Source of the DNA: Acidimicrobiia bacterium
GTDB taxonomy: Bacteria; Actinomycetota; Acidimicrobiia; Spongiisociales; ZC4RG35
Length of the DNA: 64,000 bases
Direction: 5' to 3'
Assembly: GCA_050329555.1 (NCBI GenBank)
Contig: JBHJOQ010000007.1
Span: forward strand, 211-64,210
This document shows, piece by piece, positions 9,616 to 18,410 of the stretch; the first letter of the stretch is position 1, and every line of letters starts with the position of its first letter. The position numbers and the translations under genes are program-made. Below the pieces are notes generated by a model. The model had not been told where the DNA came from. It did not search any database and was given only the letters and a program-made list of their open reading frames with translations.

Positions 9616-10098
9616 CTACATCGTCTCGAGCAGTGCGTCCAGCTTCTCGTATCCTTCGTTGATACCTACCTCCATCCCGCTGGCCACGAAGGCGTCGCGG
9701 TCGGCGAAGGAGTCGACCAGAGAGGTCCCCACCAGCCGGGTCCGACCCCCGGGCAGCTCCTCGAAACGGAGCTTCTCGAAGGCAATTCCGTCGGGCATTC
9801 CGTCCCACGCGAAGGTCTGGACGATGAGCTCACCGGGGCGGACCTCATGGAAAGAGCCGTAGAACACGTACTCCTCACCATCGGCGACTGATGCGTAGCG
9901 GTACGAGCCACCGGTGGAGCAGTCGAAATGGTCGACGCGGATGTCGAGATACTTCGGACCCATCCACTTGGCGAAGAGCTCGGCGTCGGTATGAGCGCGG
10001 AACACCTTCTCCACCGGTGCGTCGAATTCCCGGATTATCCGGACCAACGGCACTTCGGTGTCGATGATGATTTCGGTCTCGTGTTTGGTCACTGTCAC
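9616..10098 (-). CDS. SRPBCC / AHSA1-domain protein
   Basis: VTVTKHETEIIIDTEVPLVRIIREFDAPVEKVFRAHTD... Start set at GTG 10098, overlapping the ArsR stop (GTGA). The longer 198-aa ORF overlaps the upstream gene. Confidence 0.85.
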   Translation of the reverse strand: MTVTKHETEIIIDTEVPLVRIIREFDAPVEKVFRAHTDAELFAKWMGPKYLDIRVDHFDCSTGGSYRYASVADGEEYVFYGSFHEVRPGELIVQTFAWDGMPDGIAFEKLRFEELPGGRTRLVGTSLVDSFADRDAFVASGMEVGINEGYEKLDALLETM

Positions 10099-10457
10099 TT
10101 GCTTTCTCCTGTTTTCTTGTCTTCCTGGGCCGGTCCGTCGGGCATGGCCTCGAGCAGGGCGTCGAGCCGGCGATATCTCTCTTCCGCCTGTTGGCGGTAA
10201 CGCTCGATCCATTTGGTCATGAGGTCGAACACTTCCGCATCGAGATGGGCGGGGCGGCGCTGACCTTCCCGGCTACGCGTGACGACCCCGGCGTCCTCGA
10301 GCACCTTGAGGTGCTTGGAGACGGCCTGGAGTGTCACGTCGTACGGCTCGGCTAACTCGTTCACCGTGGCATCCCCGACAGCAAGCCGGGCGACTATGTC
10401 ACGGCGGGTCGGGTCGGCCAATGCCGAAAACACCTGACTCAGCGGATCTGCACTCAC
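10095..10457 (-). CDS. ArsR-family transcriptional regulator (paired with the SRPBCC gene)
   Basis: FSALADPTRRDIVARLAVGDATVNELAEPYDVTLQAVSKHLKVLEDAGVV. GTG start. Confidence 0.9.
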   Translation of the reverse strand: MSADPLSQVFSALADPTRRDIVARLAVGDATVNELAEPYDVTLQAVSKHLKVLEDAGVVTRSREGQRRPAHLDAEVFDLMTKWIERYRQQAEERYRRLDALLEAMPDGPAQEDKKTGESK

Positions 10458-14111: not shown

Positions 14112-15377
14112 TCAGGCCAGGTCGAATCGCACCGGAAGGTGCTTGATCCCCGAGATGAAGTTGCTCCGGAGGCGATCGGGCTCCCCGAGAATCTCAAAAC
14201 CACTGATTCGGGAGAGAAGCTCCTCGAACACCACCCTCACCTCGAGCCGGGCGAGTGCCGCCCCGAGGCATACGTGGCGGCCGGTGCCGAAGGTGACATG
14301 GTTGTTCGGCGACCGCTTCAAGTCGAGAGTGAAGGGATCGTCAAACACTTCCTGGTCGTAGTTGGCCGACGTATACCAGAGGACGACGCGGTCGCCGGCT
14401 TTCACCGGCACCCCCCTGATCTCGGTGTCGTCGACCACGGTTCGGCGAAAGTGCATGGTGACGGCCGATGCCCGCAGGATCTCCTCGGTTGCTGCCACCG
14501 ACATCGCAGGCGGGTCGGCGTGCCATTCGGAAAACTGAACAGGATGTTTGGCCAGATACACCAGGGCATGGCTGATGGTGTGCCTGGTGGTCTCGTTGCC
14601 GGCCACCATCATCAGGGTGAAGAAGTTCTTGAATTCGAGATCGGTGAGGGGCTGGCCGTCGGGTTCCGCGGTGAGCAGGTCGGTGATGATGTCTTCGCGT
14701 GGGTTGTCCCGGCGCTCAAGGGCGGCCTGTTCGGCGTAGCGGAACACCTCCAGTGCGGCCGGGGAGCGGAAGGGAAGAAGGCGCCACTCCTCGGTATCGA
14801 CCTTGTCGATGATGACCGGGGTGTATTCGGGGTCAGCGTTTGAGATCATTTGATCGCCCCAGGAGACGAGCCTGTCGGCATCTGTCTCAGGCACACCGAG
14901 CAGACGGCAGAGAAGGCGGATCGGCAGCTCCCGTGCGATCTCGGTGACGAAGTCGAACTCGGCTTTCGGCAACACGGTGTCGAGGACCGTACCGGCGAGT
15001 TTGCGGAAAGCGTTCTCGTACGTGGCGACCACTTTGGGGGTGAACCCGGGTGAAACCAGACGGCGGAGACGGGTGTGCTCGGGCGGGTCGTGCTCCATCA
15101 TCGACCGCCGCGCCTCGAGCTCGTCGTCGGACATCTCCTCGATCCTGATCCCCCTTGCGGCGGAGAACCTCCTGTAATCGCGGCTGACCTCAACCACGTC
15201 GGCGTGTTTCGTAACCGCCCAGAACCCCGACCCGTCGGCTTCGGTCACCCACGGGACCGGGTCTTCGTTTCGCAGCCGTTCGAAGGCAGCGTGGGGAAAT
15301 CCCTTGAGATAGGTGTCATGTGAAGTGATGTCGGCGTGGGGGTCGCCGTGGTCTTCGTTGAGTACGTTGGTTGCCAT
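14112..15377 (-). CDS. Cytochrome P450 monooxygenase
   Basis: 421 aa from MATNVLNED (ATG 15377). I-helix MVAGNETT, EILR, heme loop FGTGRHVCLGAALA. The 726-aa ORF in the track is this gene fused to the antisense of the FAH gene. Confidence 0.9.
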   Translation of the reverse strand: MATNVLNEDHGDPHADITSHDTYLKGFPHAAFERLRNEDPVPWVTEADGSGFWAVTKHADVVEVSRDYRRFSAARGIRIEEMSDDELEARRSMMEHDPPEHTRLRRLVSPGFTPKVVATYENAFRKLAGTVLDTVLPKAEFDFVTEIARELPIRLLCRLLGVPETDADRLVSWGDQMISNADPEYTPVIIDKVDTEEWRLLPFRSPAALEVFRYAEQAALERRDNPREDIITDLLTAEPDGQPLTDLEFKNFFTLMMVAGNETTRHTISHALVYLAKHPVQFSEWHADPPAMSVAATEEILRASAVTMHFRRTVVDDTEIRGVPVKAGDRVVLWYTSANYDQEVFDDPFTLDLKRSPNNHVTFGTGRHVCLGAALARLEVRVVFEELLSRISGFEILGEPDRLRSNFISGIKHLPVRFDLA

Positions 15378-15434
15378 GGAATCGTTAAGAAGCGAACATA
15401 ATCGCAACTTGGCACTGATGTGTAGAGGTATAAA

Positions 15435-16316
15435 TTGACCGAGTACCGGAGGATCCTGTTCGACGGGGCCGTAACCAGGGTGCGCCGCGAAGGCGACACG
15501 CTGCTTTCCCCTGATGGGCGGACAGTCCCTGTCGATGATGCAGTGCACCTCGCTCCGGTCGAACCGTCGAAGATCATCGCCTGCCATCTCAACTACCGGA
15601 GCCGGGTGGAGGAATTCATGACGAAACTCCCACCGGCGCCTACGTACTTTCAAAAGCCCACAACGGCCCTCAACTCGCACGGCGGCGATGTGGTCAGACC
15701 CGAACGGTGCAAATACCTCAATTTCGAGGGGGAGATTGCGATCGTGATCGGCGAGACCGCCCGCAATGTCGATCGTGAAGATGCCGGAATGGTCATCGCC
15801 GGCTACACCATCGCCAACGACTACGGCCTTCACGACTTCAGGGACACCGACGCCGGCTCGATGCTCCGGGTGAAGGGATCGGACACTCTCTGCCCGCTCG
15901 GGCCCGGCTTCGTGACCGATTGGGACTTCAGCTCCAAAGAGATTCGCACTCTGGTCAACGGCAGGGTGGTCCAGGAAGGCAACACCGCCGAGATGGAATG
16001 GGACATGCACTACCTGGTGGCCGACCTCGCCCGGACGATCACCCTGCTCCCCGGCGACGTGATCCTCTCGGGGACACCTGCCGGCTCGCGTCCCGTCGAG
16101 CCGGGTGACGTGGTGACGGTCGAGGTCGAGGGGCTCGGAGAGTTGACCAACACGATCGTCACCGGACCGACTCCCGTGGGCGACCGGGTGGGGGCGCAGC
16201 CAAGCGAGTCCGAGGAGGTACTCTCGACAGCGCTTGGTGGGGACTGGGAATTCCGCGGCGTGAGAGCGCCCCGTGGCCCCGGCGCCCAACACTACGAATC
16301 GGAGCTTGAAGAGTGA
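15435..16316 (+). CDS. Fumarylacetoacetate hydrolase family protein (HpaG-like isomerase/decarboxylase)
   Basis: YLNFEGEIAIVIG, GYTIANDYG, GDVILSGTPAG. Confidence 0.85.
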   Translation: MTEYRRILFDGAVTRVRREGDTLLSPDGRTVPVDDAVHLAPVEPSKIIACHLNYRSRVEEFMTKLPPAPTYFQKPTTALNSHGGDVVRPERCKYLNFEGEIAIVIGETARNVDREDAGMVIAGYTIANDYGLHDFRDTDAGSMLRVKGSDTLCPLGPGFVTDWDFSSKEIRTLVNGRVVQEGNTAEMEWDMHYLVADLARTITLLPGDVILSGTPAGSRPVEPGDVVTVEVEGLGELTNTIVTGPTPVGDRVGAQPSESEEVLSTALGGDWEFRGVRAPRGPGAQHYESELEE

Positions 16317-17038
16317 GCAATCCGTTGGTCGGGATCACAGCATGGAGGAGGGAACTCGACACCTTCCTCGGCCGCGAACTGCTCCACACGCTCTCGAATT
16401 ATTACTCGGACGCGGTCATCAACGCCGGGATGACACCGGTCATGTTCCCCAACGGGCAGGACCCGGCCAATGCCGCCCGGTTGGTCGGGCTCGTCGACGG
16501 CTTATTGCTCTCGGGAGGGGACGATGTCGACCCCGAGACCTACGGCGCCGTCGCCGACTCCTCCAAAGGACACCACCGGGATGTGGACGCCTTCGAAATC
16601 GCTCTGGTAAAGGCAGCCAGGGAACAGAACAAGCCGGTCCTGGCGATCTGCAGGGGAATTCAGCTGCTCAACGTTGCATTGGGTGGGACCCTCAACCAGG
16701 AGGTCACCCGGGAAGGCACGGCCCATGAGCCCATATCCGAGGACTCCGATCCCGACACCCTCAACCGCCAGCGCCACCCGGTGCATTTCGAGCCCGGATC
16801 GCTGCTCGCCGACTTCTACGGGACCACGGAGATCAAGACGAACTCCCTGCACCACCAAGGCATCGCCGAGCTCTCCCCGTCACTCATCGTCGAAGGTCGG
16901 ACCGAAGACGGCCTCGTCGAGGCGGCGCGATGCAGCGGCGACTGGTGGGCCCTTGGTGTCCAATGGCATCCGGAGCGGATGGACCCCGCCCATCAAGAGC
17001 CCCTTTTCGGGGCTTTCCGGGCAGCGATCAGCCGCTAA
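16313..17038 (+). CDS. Gamma-glutamyl amidohydrolase, class I GATase / peptidase C26 (PuuD-like)
   Basis: LLLSGGDDVDP, nucleophile Cys in PVLAICRGIQLLNVALGG, GVQWHPE. 4-nt overlap with the FAH gene. Confidence 0.85.
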   Translation: MSNPLVGITAWRRELDTFLGRELLHTLSNYYSDAVINAGMTPVMFPNGQDPANAARLVGLVDGLLLSGGDDVDPETYGAVADSSKGHHRDVDAFEIALVKAAREQNKPVLAICRGIQLLNVALGGTLNQEVTREGTAHEPISEDSDPDTLNRQRHPVHFEPGSLLADFYGTTEIKTNSLHHQGIAELSPSLIVEGRTEDGLVEAARCSGDWWALGVQWHPERMDPAHQEPLFGAFRAAISR

Positions 17039-17366
17039 CGCGCACGCCGGTGGCAAGAGCGGAGCGCAGGCTTTCGAGACGCTCGGGAACCACCCGGTAG
17101 TGCACCCATCTCCCCTGCCGATCACCTTCGACCAGGCCGGCCCGGCGAAGGATCTTGAGATGATGGGAGACTGTCGGCTGCGACAGCCCCAGCGGCGCCT
17201 CCAGGTCACACCCGCAGGCAGTGCCCCCCGGTGCGGCGGCCAGCATCGAGACGATGCGCAGACGCACCGGGTCACCGAGGGCAGCGAAGGTCGCGGCCAT
17301 GTCATCGGCGGCGTCGCTGTCGACCACTCCGTCGAACAAAGGTATGCAGCAGAAATCCATTCTCAT
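17028..17366 (-). CDS. ArsR/SmtB-family metal-sensing repressor, thiolate (alpha3N-like) type
   Basis: MRMDFCC (N-terminal Cys pair), DPVRLRIVSML, alpha3 TACGCDLE, recognition helix QPTVSHHLKILRRAGLV. Start set at ATG 17366 (17360 also possible). Confidence 0.85.
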   Translation of the reverse strand: MRMDFCCIPLFDGVVDSDAADDMAATFAALGDPVRLRIVSMLAAAPGGTACGCDLEAPLGLSQPTVSHHLKILRRAGLVEGDRQGRWVHYRVVPERLESLRSALATGVRVSG

Positions 17367-17418
17367 ATTGACAATAGTCGATACATCGATATAGTTCAAT
17401 ACATTGAAGTTCATCGAT
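17367..17418. promoter_or_regulatory. Three 16-nt boxes ATTGA-N6-TCGAT in alternating orientation, each separated by AC; candidate ArsR/SmtB operator array
   Basis: Box1 17367-17382 ATTGAcaatagTCGAT, box2 17385-17400 ATCGAtatagtTCAAT, box3 17403-17418 ATTGAagttcaTCGAT. They lie in the A/T-rich divergent spacer. Confidence 0.5.
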
Positions 17419-17438
17419 CTATTGCAAAAGGAGGAACG

Positions 17439-17492
17439 ATGTCACTTCGCGAAAACGACGCCGGATGTTGTGACGACAACTGCTGCTGCTGA
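17439..17492 (+). CDS. 17-aa Cys-rich micro-protein MSLRENDAGCCDDNCCC (putative minimal metal-chelating peptide)
   Basis: ATG 17439 preceded by AAGGAGG (17428-17434, 4-nt spacer). Stop TGA at 17490-17492, hairpin 13 nt downstream. Divergent from the ArsR/SmtB gene. It corresponds to the last 18 codons of a spurious 272-aa track ORF. Confidence 0.5.
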   Translation: MSLRENDAGCCDDNCCC

Positions 17493-17504
17493 ACTGGCCC
17501 GAAA

Positions 17505-17539
17505 GTGTGGTGCGTCCTGCTTCGTTGGGCGCACCACAC
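17505..17539. terminator. Perfect 10-bp GC-rich hairpin GTGTGGTGCG-N15-CGCACCACAC between convergent genes
   Basis: Read directly. On the minus strand it is followed by TTT. It lies between the micro-ORF stop (17492) and the nuclease gene stop (17553). Confidence 0.55.
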
Positions 17540-17552
17540 CCGGAGATCAGCC

Positions 17553-18410
17553 TTAGCTCTCCAGAATCCGGACGGTTGCCTCGCCTTCGCTGCATCCCTC
17601 GAGCACCGGGCAGTATTGACACCATGGCCCTCCCCTCCTCTCGAAATCGGCGCCCGATGACCAGTGACGCCTCAAGTCGTCGACCATATGTGACACCTCG
17701 GCGGCCACCTTCAACACATCAGCGGTTACGGGTAGCGAGGAATAGCGCTCCCCCGTCTTCACGGAGATGGCCTCGACCGAAACCGGCAGCTGCTTGCGGT
17801 CGAGCATCCACAACAGGGCGTAGAAACCCAGCTGCTCTCTCGCCTCCCCCAGCTCACCCGTCTTCCAGTCGACCAGGCGGTGGCCCTCCGGATCGCCGCT
17901 GTAGACGGCATCGATCTGACCGACCAGCTCGACGCCCGCAGCGACTGCGATAACAAATACGATCTCCGCTCCCTCGAAGCCCTCCTGCGGAAACCGGACA
18001 AATCGCTGGTAGAGGGCCCGCACTTCTTCGAACACGCCACCAAGCTCGGAGGGCTTCAGGCCCAAATCACGCATCGAGTTATTGAGCCGCTGGGAGCCTC
18101 CGATCTCTTCGCGGCAAGCCTGTTCGAACGCGGCCTCGTCGATCGGTCCGGAGACGAGGTGCCTGCGGAATATCTGGTGGGCCAGGCTGCCGACGAACGA
18201 CGAGCGGGAGGCGGTCCCGTAATTGCCCTGGTAGCGGGCATCCGCTCGGGCCGGGCACTGTTTGTAAGCAAGGTAGGACGTCGCCGAGACCCGGACGTCG
18301 TCTCCCGGTAGGGAGGGAACTATTTCCACCTTTGTCACGTCGAAACTGTAGATGTCGATGATTAAGCAAAGGGACCGGCCCGGGTTACCATCGGATCTCC
18401 GCCCGGGCAA
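17553..18410 (-). CDS. PD-(D/E)XK nuclease, RecB/Cas4-like with a 4-Cys cluster
   Basis: N-terminal Cys in YLAYKQCPARA, GQIDAVY...LVDWKTGE (D..D/ExK), C-terminal CQYCPVLEGC (CX2CX5C). Start uncertain (GTG 18338 or 18329 are alternatives). Confidence 0.7.
   Translation of the reverse strand: MPGRRSDGNPGRSLCLIIDIYSFDVTKVEIVPSLPGDDVRVSATSYLAYKQCPARADARYQGNYGTASRSSFVGSLAHQIFRRHLVSGPIDEAAFEQACREEIGGSQRLNNSMRDLGLKPSELGGVFEEVRALYQRFVRFPQEGFEGAEIVFVIAVAAGVELVGQIDAVYSGDPEGHRLVDWKTGELGEAREQLGFYALLWMLDRKQLPVSVEAISVKTGERYSSLPVTADVLKVAAEVSHMVDDLRRHWSSGADFERRGGPWCQYCPVLEGCSEGEATVRILES

Follow-up and report, generated by a model that had tools for sequence, protein, structure and literature searches.

The repressor gene, the micro-ORF and the DNA between them

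Within the window (the whole 64-kb stretch of DNA analysed here), a gene for an ArsR/SmtB repressor lies divergent from a cysteine-rich micro-ORF of only 17 codons. The intervening DNA holds a predicted promoter and a set of putative operator elements, and a hairpin follows the micro-ORF. The features are as follows.

17028..17360, minus strand: ArsR/SmtB repressor gene, 110 aa counted from MDFCC
17366, minus strand: alternative ArsR start, which would give MRMDFCC
17368..17395, plus strand: predicted sigma-70-type promoter of the micro-ORF (TTGACA 17368-17373, 16-nt spacer, TATAGT 17390-17395)
17378..17389: putative operator dyad 1, TCGAT-AC-ATCGA, an inverted repeat between -35 and -10
17393..17410: putative operator dyad 2, AGTTCAAT-AC-ATTGAAGT, 8-2-8 with one mismatch, spanning the predicted transcription start
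17411..17418: third conserved element, TCATCGAT, which includes the palindrome ATCGAT
17428..17434, plus strand: Shine-Dalgarno sequence AAGGAGG, 4 nt 5′ of the ATG at 17439
17439..17492, plus strand: micro-ORF, 17 codons plus TGA (17490-17492), peptide MSLRENDAGCCDDNCCC
17505..17539: GC-rich terminator hairpin, 13-bp stem and 9-nt loop, shared with a convergent nuclease gene

The Shine-Dalgarno sequence, start codon, peptide and stop codon all lie where an earlier note on this DNA had placed them. The micro-ORF does form the final codons of a 272-aa ORF (16674-17492, plus strand) that spans the ArsR gene in antisense. Translated in all six frames, the entire window contains a single CC...CC-stop tail, and the linker between the Cys pairs of the window peptide is DDN. 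The 10-bp hairpin described previously at 17505-17539 is also present, with a stem that reaches 13 pairs: its 13-nt arms form 10 perfect pairs, one G-U pair and two further pairs, and the fold has a z-score of -3.4. The stop codon of the convergent nuclease gene lies at 17553. A consensus terminator scan returned nothing at the hairpin because it lacks a T-run, and folding and covariation were therefore used to assess it instead. As for the repressor, which had been assigned to 17028-17366, a gene is indeed found there on the minus strand, and its start moves to 17360, where homologues begin (MDFCC).

The near-consensus promoter TTGACA-16-TATAGT matches 11 of 12 positions, with 0.1 such sites expected by chance, and predicts a transcription start for the micro-ORF at ~17402. 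This promoter was absent from the earlier note's feature list. The spacer between the two genes is A/T-rich, as had been remarked (34-40% GC versus ~65% nearby). Three 16-nt boxes of the form ATTGA-N6-TCGAT had been proposed as a multi-dimer operator, and all three are exact (17367-17382, plus; 17385-17400, minus; 17403-17418, plus). There are zero further exact copies in the 64-kb window, and 3.5 matches with one mismatch are expected by chance over its whole length. While the box sequences hold, the boxes are not conserved as units in an alignment of 42 intergenic regions. With TTGACA at 17368, box 1 is largely the -35 element, and ATTGACA is invariant in the alignment. Judging from this alignment, the conserved putative operator units are inverted repeats centred on "AC" spacers, plus the -35 hexamer: dyad 1 is kept as TCgAT-ry-ATCGA and dyad 2 as TCaAT-ry-ATCGAAG. 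The third element, kept as TCaTCgAT, may be an additional half-site. Elsewhere in the window, every other candidate for dyad 2 is at least 2 mismatches away; since the operator has no second site in the window, the regulon cannot be defined from the window alone.

Conservation of the micro-ORF and its link to ArsR

Of 80 related genome loci, 43 have an ORF of 16-20 aa divergent from an orthologous ArsR, and in all 43 ArsR is ~63% or more identical; the micro-ORF also occurs in metagenome loci. The family consensus is M-x3-6-[D/E]-G-CC-GGG-x0-4-CC(CC)-stop, with 4-6 Cys in 16-20 aa (25-35%). Each ORF-bearing locus has A(A)GGAG 4-8 nt 5′ of the start codon, which is ATG in all cases except one GTG, and each copy of the micro-ORF is preceded by a TTGACA promoter whose elements are interspersed with inverted repeats. 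No locus lacks the terminator hairpin, which shows compensatory changes at 10 of its 13 pairs. Pairwise differences are distributed 179:463:1831 over the three codon positions, a clear third-position excess, and codon differences are more often synonymous (1609) than non-synonymous (465). At the first CC pair, codon positions 1 and 2 are invariant in 40 of 40 sequences, with T and C split 20:20 at position 3. The earlier note had made its reading depend on retention of the ORF in relatives that have the regulator. The ORF is retained there under protein-level selection, both in the 43 loci and in other arrangements. Based on this pattern of conservation, we conclude that the micro-ORF is a real, conserved and unannotated gene. 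One caveat is that the Acidimicrobiia loci are syntenic, so their conservation partly reflects shared ancestry. Moreover, four relatives (L007, L010, L015 and L020) retain ArsR and have the micro-ORF deleted. This implies that the peptide is dispensable, and that ArsR must also do something else, for example regulate itself or act on other targets.

The association is also seen outside this syntenic group. In a second, Demequina-type clade of ArsR proteins (~40% identical), a divergent micro-ORF is found in L177 and in six of seven other loci, three cultured strains among them; here, the operator (GACATATGTC) and the neighbouring genes are different. The ArsR proteins of this clade themselves terminate in CC. 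A third arrangement, in L094, has arsR followed by the co-directional MCCMDTGCCGGGCC. In a motif-only scan of metagenomes, ArsR adjoins all six of the true micro-ORFs with sufficient flanks, among the matches listed; the CC motif is of low complexity, and the majority of the listed matches are chance ones. Other neighbours vary: one clade has a nuclease and a VanW protein beside the module, another a PIN protein together with tRNA genes. Collectively, these comparisons of loci indicate that the link to ArsR extends beyond shared synteny, and that no gene other than ArsR accompanies the micro-ORF consistently across the three arrangements.

Runs of Cys codons in a tiny ORF raise the question of attenuation. 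In mycobacteria, polycysteine leaderless short ORFs act as cysteine-responsive attenuators (bioRxiv 10.1101/834739), and, like the micro-ORF, they are tiny, actinobacterial, rich in consecutive Cys codons and missed by annotation. These mycobacterial ORFs, however, lack a leader and lie 5′ of the operons that they attenuate, whereas the micro-ORF has its own terminator, a repressor partner and no downstream operon; its Shine-Dalgarno sequence and predicted 5′ leader mean that it is not leaderless. In all three arrangements, what lies beyond the terminator is a convergent gene or an unrelated one and in no case a co-directional operon, which bears out the earlier judgement that a leader-peptide role is unlikely. 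In Demequina, tRNA-Ser and tRNA-Arg genes do lie co-directionally 3′ of the micro-ORF. A Cys/Gly-rich leader feeding these tRNA genes was considered and rejected, because the tRNAs are those for Ser and Arg and the terminator intervenes. It could also be imagined that the locus is a conserved non-coding DNA or RNA element that merely happens to be open. Against this, the codon-position pattern points to selection on the Gly linker and the acidic residues, beyond the Cys codons, and no Rfam family was matched (a permissive scan of 16900-17800 gave sub-threshold chance matches only). We regard an attenuator or a non-coding element as the least probable of the readings weighed here.

A short, Cys-rich sequence whose N-terminal part varies could also belong to a RiPP precursor, or to a redox or signalling peptide that relies for its maturation on enzymes from other loci, and the window ArsR has a weak NCBIfam match to TsoR, the regulator of a RiPP system. 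But in none of the three arrangements does a conserved maturase, protease or transporter accompany the micro-ORF; the neighbours vary by clade and none is a known maturase. In addition, the 16-21 aa show no leader/core organisation. This explanation thus seems very improbable.

Candidate ligand positions of the repressor

The window ArsR has the expected winged-helix domain (Pfam HTH_5, PF01022, E 4e-16) and scores 98.8 bits against NCBIfam HTH_metalloreg (NF033788), well over the cut-off of 55 bits. Against the Rv2640c family (NF041413, an equivalog) it scores 97.2 bits, and the Demequina proteins 108-110 bits, in both cases below the cut-off of 155 bits. By these scores, the window and Demequina ArsRs are relatives of the Rv2640c equivalog, yet outside it.

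Four Cys residues, the N-terminal CC pair and the C-G-C of helix alpha3, are invariant across 20 ArsR homologues. A phmmer alignment with SmtB (1R1T) places the first Cys of C-G-C on SmtB Cys61 (ELCVGDL), and C-G-C occupies the alpha3 position of Cys32/Cys34 in the R773 repressor. A four-thiolate site formed by N-terminal and alpha3 residues is the alpha3N arrangement of CadC-type sensors for Cd, Pb and Zn. The best match in the PDB is 6J0E, the As-responsive ArsR of C. glutamicum (E 1e-19), and C4-C5 of the window protein align with its vicinal pair Cys15-Cys16. Together with the alignment on SmtB, this upholds the earlier view of a thiolate-type sensor. In CgArsR, the type-3 As(III) site consists of Cys15, Cys16 and Cys55 (PMC11868830). 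The two proteins differ at the third ligand: the window ArsR has Gly at the position of Cys55, and its nearest Cys residues are those of C-G-C, four to six residues downstream, in a CadC-like placement.

The genomic company of related repressors provides additional clues. ArsR relatives that are 52-60% identical adjoin genes for ArsI/CadI and MIP (an aquaglyceroporin), or for ACR3, each of these neighbours exceeding its NCBIfam cut-off, and their intergenic layout resembles that of the window. In the window itself, tblastn found no ArsD, ArsM, ACR3, ArsI/CadI, MIP or ArsO-like gene, and there are no ars genes near the Demequina modules.

Likeness to ArsD and ArsM tails, and a possible role in arsenic handling

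Neither Pfam nor NCBIfam gave a match with the peptide, the doubled peptide or 20-aa family members, and with the latter no Pfam family was hit at E up to 10, metallothionein families included. The peptide therefore does not belong to the SmtA/BmtA-type metallothioneins as a sequence family. Exact look-up of nine forms of 20-35 aa in a collection of 15 billion proteins produced one record only, an upstream-extended 33-aa "hypothetical protein", and we came across no published account of small Cys-rich peptides that ArsR or an ars system controls.

It had been stated that the peptide could not be placed in any described family. Its tail, however, can be recognised: ...GCCGGGxCC-stop is the C-terminal motif of ArsD and of many ArsM proteins. 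Plasmid-encoded ArsD proteins end in ...SCCGGNTSCC (R773 type), ...GCCSGSRCC or ...GCCSSRGCC, compared with MISLDDSGCCGGGTSCC for the micro-ORF, and ArsM proteins in ...GCCGGGGCC-stop. In each case an acidic or small residue and a Gly precede a first CC, which a Gly-rich linker (3-5 residues) separates from a second CC directly before the stop codon. Among the matches listed in the motif-only scan, 8 of the 15 long ORFs that end in the motif are ArsM (6) or ArsD (2). The genes for ArsD and ArsM are under ArsR control, as the micro-ORF presumably is. The differences are equally plain. ArsD has a thioredoxin-like body with a Cys12/13/18 site and ArsM a methyltransferase domain, whereas the micro-peptide has neither, and stands alone with its own promoter, Shine-Dalgarno sequence and terminator. 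Accordingly, of the features of the ArsD family (NF033727), the 17-aa peptide has the C-terminal CC-x3-5-CC-stop and lacks the Cys12-Cys13-Cys18 body. The idea that the micro-ORF is the decaying 3′ end of a former arsD or arsM gene was rejected as a present-day explanation, because start codon, Shine-Dalgarno sequence, promoter and codon-level selection are all kept; such a remnant may nonetheless be its evolutionary origin.

According to Lin, Yang & Rosen 2007, the chaperone activity of ArsD reportedly does not need the C-terminal Cys pairs. In R773 ArsD, the pairs Cys112-113 and Cys119-120 are reported as metalloid-sensing, in the passage of PMC4562236 that cites Li, Chen & Rosen 2001.

The resemblance bears on which known system is the better guide. 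The earlier note took SmtB-SmtA as precedent, and in both SmtB-SmtA and BxmR-BmtA, as at this locus, a thiol-rich product is encoded divergently from, and presumably repressed by, an ArsR/SmtB sensor of the same ligand. SmtA, though, has ~56 aa, a Zn4 cluster fold and a Pfam family, while the micro-peptide is about one third of that size and has no family. Because the peptide corresponds to an ArsD/ArsM tail, the nearer precedent would be arsenic handling by ArsR/ArsD rather than a zinc metallothionein, and the contextual evidence all points to arsenic over zinc. An alternative, along the lines of the earlier note, is a minimal metallothionein of the generic kind, directed at cationic soft metals (Cd, Zn, Pb, Cu(I), Hg) and not at arsenic; ArsR would then be a CadC/BxmR-like alpha3N sensor, and the peptide would form metal-thiolate clusters, possibly as an oligomer. 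A Cys content of 25-35% would suit this, as would the equivalence of the four invariant ArsR thiolates to CadC-type positions and the control by related ArsRs of ArsI/CadI-family genes, CadI being named for its induction by cadmium. But the exact tail motif is found on the arsenic-specific ArsD and ArsM and not on known metallothioneins, the closest solved regulator responds to As(III), the relatives adjoin ACR3 and an aquaglyceroporin, and no Pfam metallothionein family is matched. We consider a generic metallothionein unlikely.

Our preferred interpretation, to which we assign a probability of roughly 60%, is that the micro-ORF is repressed by ArsR and that its product binds As(III) or some other soft metal, making it essentially an ArsD/ArsM tail that stands alone. 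Under this model, ArsR-family repressor and micro-ORF would form a self-contained module of two genes. ArsR would bind the inverted repeats, which overlap both core elements of the strong divergent promoter (-35 and -10) as well as its start site, and would probably also cover its own promoter, whose transcript would be short-leadered or leaderless. Binding of As(III) or another thiophilic ion to the ArsR thiolates (CC and Cys-Gly-Cys) would cause ArsR to leave the DNA. Derepression would then yield a short monocistronic mRNA with a ~37-nt leader, the strong Shine-Dalgarno sequence, 17 codons and the terminator. The encoded peptide, of 16-21 aa, begins with an acidic stub and continues with two or three vicinal Cys pairs that a flexible Gly-rich linker joins; once free, it would most likely take up As(III) or Sb(III) via three or four thiolates. 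When loaded, it would serve as an inducible cytosolic buffer or carrier, and competition with ArsR for the inducer would exert negative feedback on its own expression. Within this scheme, that ArsR represses, which ion induces, that the peptide is translated in vivo and that it binds metalloids are all inferred from sequence.

It is conceivable that the role of the peptide is mainly regulatory: by soaking up inducer, or by interacting with ArsR directly, it would set the threshold and switch-off of the response, and bulk detoxification would not be its purpose. ArsR is the sole consistently linked gene in three arrangements, the second-clade ArsRs also end in CC, and the C-terminal vicinal pairs of ArsD are credited, in the passage mentioned above, with a metalloid-sensing, second-regulator function. 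Conversely, a promoter and Shine-Dalgarno sequence of this strength point to abundant product, as would be expected of a stoichiometric binder, and four lineages have ArsR without the peptide. A chiefly regulatory role appears distinctly unlikely.

Phytochelatins, (gamma-Glu-Cys)n-Gly, offer a further comparison: they are small, acidic and thiol-rich, and are induced by and bind As(III) and Cd. They are made enzymatically from glutathione, whereas the micro-peptide would be gene-encoded and ribosomal. A broader proposal, which we hold tentatively and at a little short of even odds, is that the micro-ORF represents an undescribed ars-type gene. It would be a vicinal-cysteine module of 14-21 aa, ArsR-controlled and made on the ribosome, an encoded counterpart of phytochelatins for As(III) and a mobile mini-domain that can exist either as a free gene or as the tail of ArsD or ArsM. 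If the micro-peptide reading is true, we know of no smaller gene-encoded metal(loid)-binding peptide.

The module is carried by cultured Demequina strains, Demequina activiva and Demequina sp. NBRC 110055 and NBRC 110057 among them, which makes the hypothesis directly testable. Arsenic resistance is among the most thoroughly catalogued of bacterial stress systems, and still this gene family has been invisible to gene callers. If the peptide does bind As(III), it would add a new component to ars biology and suggest a function for the C-terminal Cys tails of ArsD and ArsM, which are poorly understood. A further gain would be a minimal encodable arsenic-binding tag with a matched repressor and operator, of potential use in biosensors and bioaccumulation.

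Elements of the ArsR/micro-ORF locus

The earlier note paired an ArsR repressor gene with a divergent, Cys-rich ORF of 17 codons, and every element it listed is found in the window sequence. These features, together with a promoter beyond that list, are as follows.

17028-17360, minus strand: ArsR repressor gene (focal ArsR)
17368-17395, toward the micro-ORF: near-consensus promoter TTGACA-16-TATAGT
17428-17434, plus strand: Shine-Dalgarno AAGGAGG, then a 4-nt spacer and ATG at 17439
17439-17492, plus strand: micro-ORF, ATG 17439 to TGA 17490-17492, peptide MSLRENDAGCCDDNCCC
17505-17539: hairpin following the micro-ORF, arms of 13 nt with one G-U pair

The 272-aa ORF at 16674-17492 is clearly spurious, as had been suspected; it extends antisense across the ArsR gene, and its final codons are those of the micro-ORF. 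The minus-strand gene does encode a bona fide HTH_5/HTH_metalloreg protein. In an alignment of 20 homologues, the usual start is MDFCC (17360) and four Cys residues are invariant, the N-terminal CC and the alpha3 C-G-C. The 64-kb window has exact ATTGA-N6-TCGAT boxes solely at 17367-17418, three in all, and GC content falls to 34-40% there, in line with the A/T-richness described before.

Some neighboring features deserve mention. The ArsR gene (-) and a convergent C26 peptidase/gamma-glutamyl hydrolase-like gene (16313-17038, +) share 11 nt where their 3′ ends meet (17028-17038); in some relatives, a co-directional OsmC-family gene lies 3′ of ArsR in place of the peptidase. The listed 726-aa ORF at 14112-16292 (-) is a composite, with a cytochrome P450 heme-binding signature (FGTGRHVCLG) in its C-terminal part and an upstream part that overlaps an FAA-hydrolase gene on the opposite strand. 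A second ArsR-family gene (10095-10457, -) is Cys-free and 40% identical to the focal ArsR over 57 aa. Directly downstream, co-directional and overlapping as listed, is a 198-aa ORF (9616-10212, -); the two might represent the common pairing of ArsR with an activator-of-Hsp90-ATPase-like protein, which is a guess.

Conservation of the micro-ORF in Acidimicrobiia

Conservation among relatives had been proposed as a check on the ORF. Among 80 loci encoding ArsR relatives, drawn from a one-genome-per-species collection, 43 keep an ORF of 16-20 codons divergent from ArsR. All 43 come from Acidimicrobiia-type MAGs and encode an ArsR at least ~63% identical to the focal one. The peptide consensus is M-x3-6-[D/E]-x-G-CC-GGG-x0-4-CC(CC)-stop, with a C-x-C variant, MTIRMIDGGCGCDCDC, at locus L003; start codons (42 ATG, one GTG) lie 4-8 nt downstream of A(A)GGAG(G). 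All 40 distinct sequences agree at codon positions 1 and 2 of the first CC pair, while T and C are evenly split (20:20) at position 3. Pairwise differences per codon position in the block of CC plus three codons stand at 179:463:1831. Synonymous versus non-synonymous codon differences number 1609 versus 465. This codon pattern shows protein-level selection. There are 2 to 4 terminal Cys residues and Gly runs of differing length, as would be expected from slippage in (TGC)n and (GGC)n tracts. Specific tests contradict readings of the micro-ORF as a RiPP precursor, an attenuator or a non-coding element.

The intergenic alignment retains ATTGACA, TCATCGAT, the Shine-Dalgarno and two inverted repeats, TCGAT-ry-ATCGA and TCAAT-ry-ATCGAAG. 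At every locus a GC-rich hairpin lies 3′ of the stop; its stem sequences vary, with compensatory changes in 10 of 13 pairs. Four relatives (L007, L010, L015 and L020) have cleanly deleted the ORF and retain ArsR and part of the repeats. Thus, the micro-ORF is dispensable, and it is lost by deletion rather than decay. Several of the closest relatives (L001, L002, L022, L026) belong to MAGs with 'Lejia' in their label; should this stand for the salt lake Laguna Lejía, they may inhabit an arsenic-rich site, though that is a guess based solely on the name.

Gene order is shared among the Acidimicrobiia loci: VanW protein, PD-(D/E)XK nuclease (convergent to the micro-ORF), micro-ORF, ArsR, then C26 peptidase or OsmC. 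In the window, the nuclease gene (17553-18410, -) encodes Cas4/AddB-like cysteines, C...CxxC...C. In many relatives (L005, L009 and others) this gene ends within the shared terminator hairpin, with its stop codon in the loop and its final codons making up the 3′ arm.

Independent ArsR/micro-ORF arrangements

Because the Acidimicrobiia loci are syntenic, we searched for independent arrangements, scanning metagenomes with the peptide motif alone (CCGGG-x0-4-CC-TGA). Among the matches listed, all six true micro-ORFs with enough flanking DNA adjoin an ArsR gene. One of these, L177, encodes an ArsR just ~40% identical to the focal ArsR, and its protein family is that of Demequina, which belongs to the order Micrococcales and therefore to a different class from Acidimicrobiia. 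That layout is found again at six loci, three of which belong to cultured Demequina strains. Here a different palindrome, GACATATGTC, overlaps the -35 TTGACA and is followed by AAAGGAGGTG, an ORF of 15-21 codons and a hairpin. The peptides of this clade are MTTILDCCGGGGGCCGGGGCC, MTGTTMNGGGCCGGCC, MESMTQCCGGGCCGTGCC, MTDFNLDGCCGGGCC, MVSTTNMTGGGCCGGGCC and MVRTIDGGCCAGGGCC. The neighbors, tRNA-Ser and tRNA-Arg genes and a PIN protein, are entirely unlike those in Acidimicrobiia. L210, a more distant clade member, has no micro-ORF. In a third arrangement, L094, the ArsR carries C-I-C as well as a C-terminal CC, and co-directional MCCMDTGCCGGGCC comes after it. Across arrangements, the sole constant partner of the micro-ORF is ArsR.

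At the Demequina-type loci L204-L209, the module interrupts a run of tRNA genes, with tRNA-Ser(TGA) on one side and tRNA-Ser(GCT)-tRNA-Arg(ACG) on the other. It seems to have inserted at a site rich in tRNA genes, so the gene pair may travel as a cassette. At their C-termini, the ArsR proteins of L177, L207-L209 and L094 have a vicinal Cys pair (...SCCT, ...NCC, ...DCC, ...SCC, ...ACC); vicinal pairs thus recur in sensor and peptide alike. Some ArsRs of the second and third arrangements have an alpha3 CC instead of CxC.

The peptide, its sensor and arsenic

The peptide has no match among Pfam or NCBIfam models and is essentially absent from the protein collection. Its motif is already known from ArsD, the arsenic metallochaperone/regulator. 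Among the matches listed in the motif-only metagenome scan, 15 long ORFs end in the motif; six are ArsM (arsenite methyltransferase) and two are ArsD, all eight above curated cut-offs and several adjoining an ArsR gene. Plasmid ArsD C-termini (...SCCGGNTSCC, ...GCCSGSRCC, ...GCCSSRGCC) resemble the micro-ORF peptides MISLDDSGCCGGGTSCC and MISLDDNGGCCGGGGTSCC. In R773 ArsD, the tail cysteines form the vicinal pairs Cys112-113 and Cys119-120, implicated in metalloid sensing (PMC4562236). Given the motif common to ArsD and ArsM C-termini, the micro-ORF product is a free-standing ArsD/ArsM tail. A CCGGGxCC-stop tail also occurs, in metagenome loci, on a small membrane protein and an FmdB-type zinc-ribbon protein (L145 13063-13293, L191 3519-3737); the former has a DUF2892/YgaP-like look by sequence and no NCBIfam match. 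It thus seems that this module is portable and not confined to ArsD and ArsM.

The best solved homologue of the focal ArsR is the arsenic-responsive Corynebacterium glutamicum ArsR, CgArsR (6J0E, E 1e-19). The type-3 As(III) site of CgArsR comprises Cys15, Cys16 and Cys55 (PMC11868830). The focal Cys-Cys aligns with Cys15-Cys16, whereas Gly replaces Cys55 and the C-G-C falls on the SmtB Cys61/R773 Cys32-34 position; the site is thus a type 3/type 1 hybrid, which bears out the four-thiolate 'alpha3N' arrangement of the earlier note. Many ArsR relatives at 52-60% identity, which lack the micro-ORF, retain the N-terminal CC and C-x-C. They neighbor ArsI/CadI with an aquaglyceroporin, ACR3 or an ArsO-like oxidoreductase, with a promoter layout recognizably similar to that of the micro-ORF clade; arsenic-type genes are therefore the probable targets of this regulator lineage. 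The slot that belongs elsewhere to arsI/cadI is filled by the peptide gene in the micro-ORF clade. A metallothionein for cationic metals (Cd/Zn/Pb/Cu/Hg) would suit the four-thiolate site and the CadI connection, but sits poorly with the ArsD/ArsM tail identity, the CgArsR homology and the ACR3/MIP neighbors, and we regard it as unlikely.

For the favored arsenic-type peptide, we propose that ArsR binds both operator dyads, dyad 1 (17378-17389) between -35 and -10 and dyad 2 (17393-17410) over the predicted start at ~17402. Binding would repress the micro-ORF promoter and probably also the overlapping promoter of ArsR itself. The repressor would come off once its N-terminal and alpha3 thiolates capture As(III) or a different thiophilic ion, and the short mRNA would be efficiently translated. 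The peptide may then bind the metalloid via three or four thiolates, buffer or carry it, and, by competing for inducer, reset ArsR. A purely regulatory sponge partly coincides with this scheme; as the whole function of the peptide it seems quite improbable.

Finally, the SmtB-SmtA pair follows the same logic, a thiol-rich binder encoded divergently from an ArsR-family sensor, metal binding being putative here. In family libraries and the literature, we found no description of a free-standing, separately promoted and terminated gene for 14-21 aa. This kind of gene is conserved across two actinobacterial classes. The arsenic-peptide hypothesis is sharp, and the cultured strains allow it to be tested.
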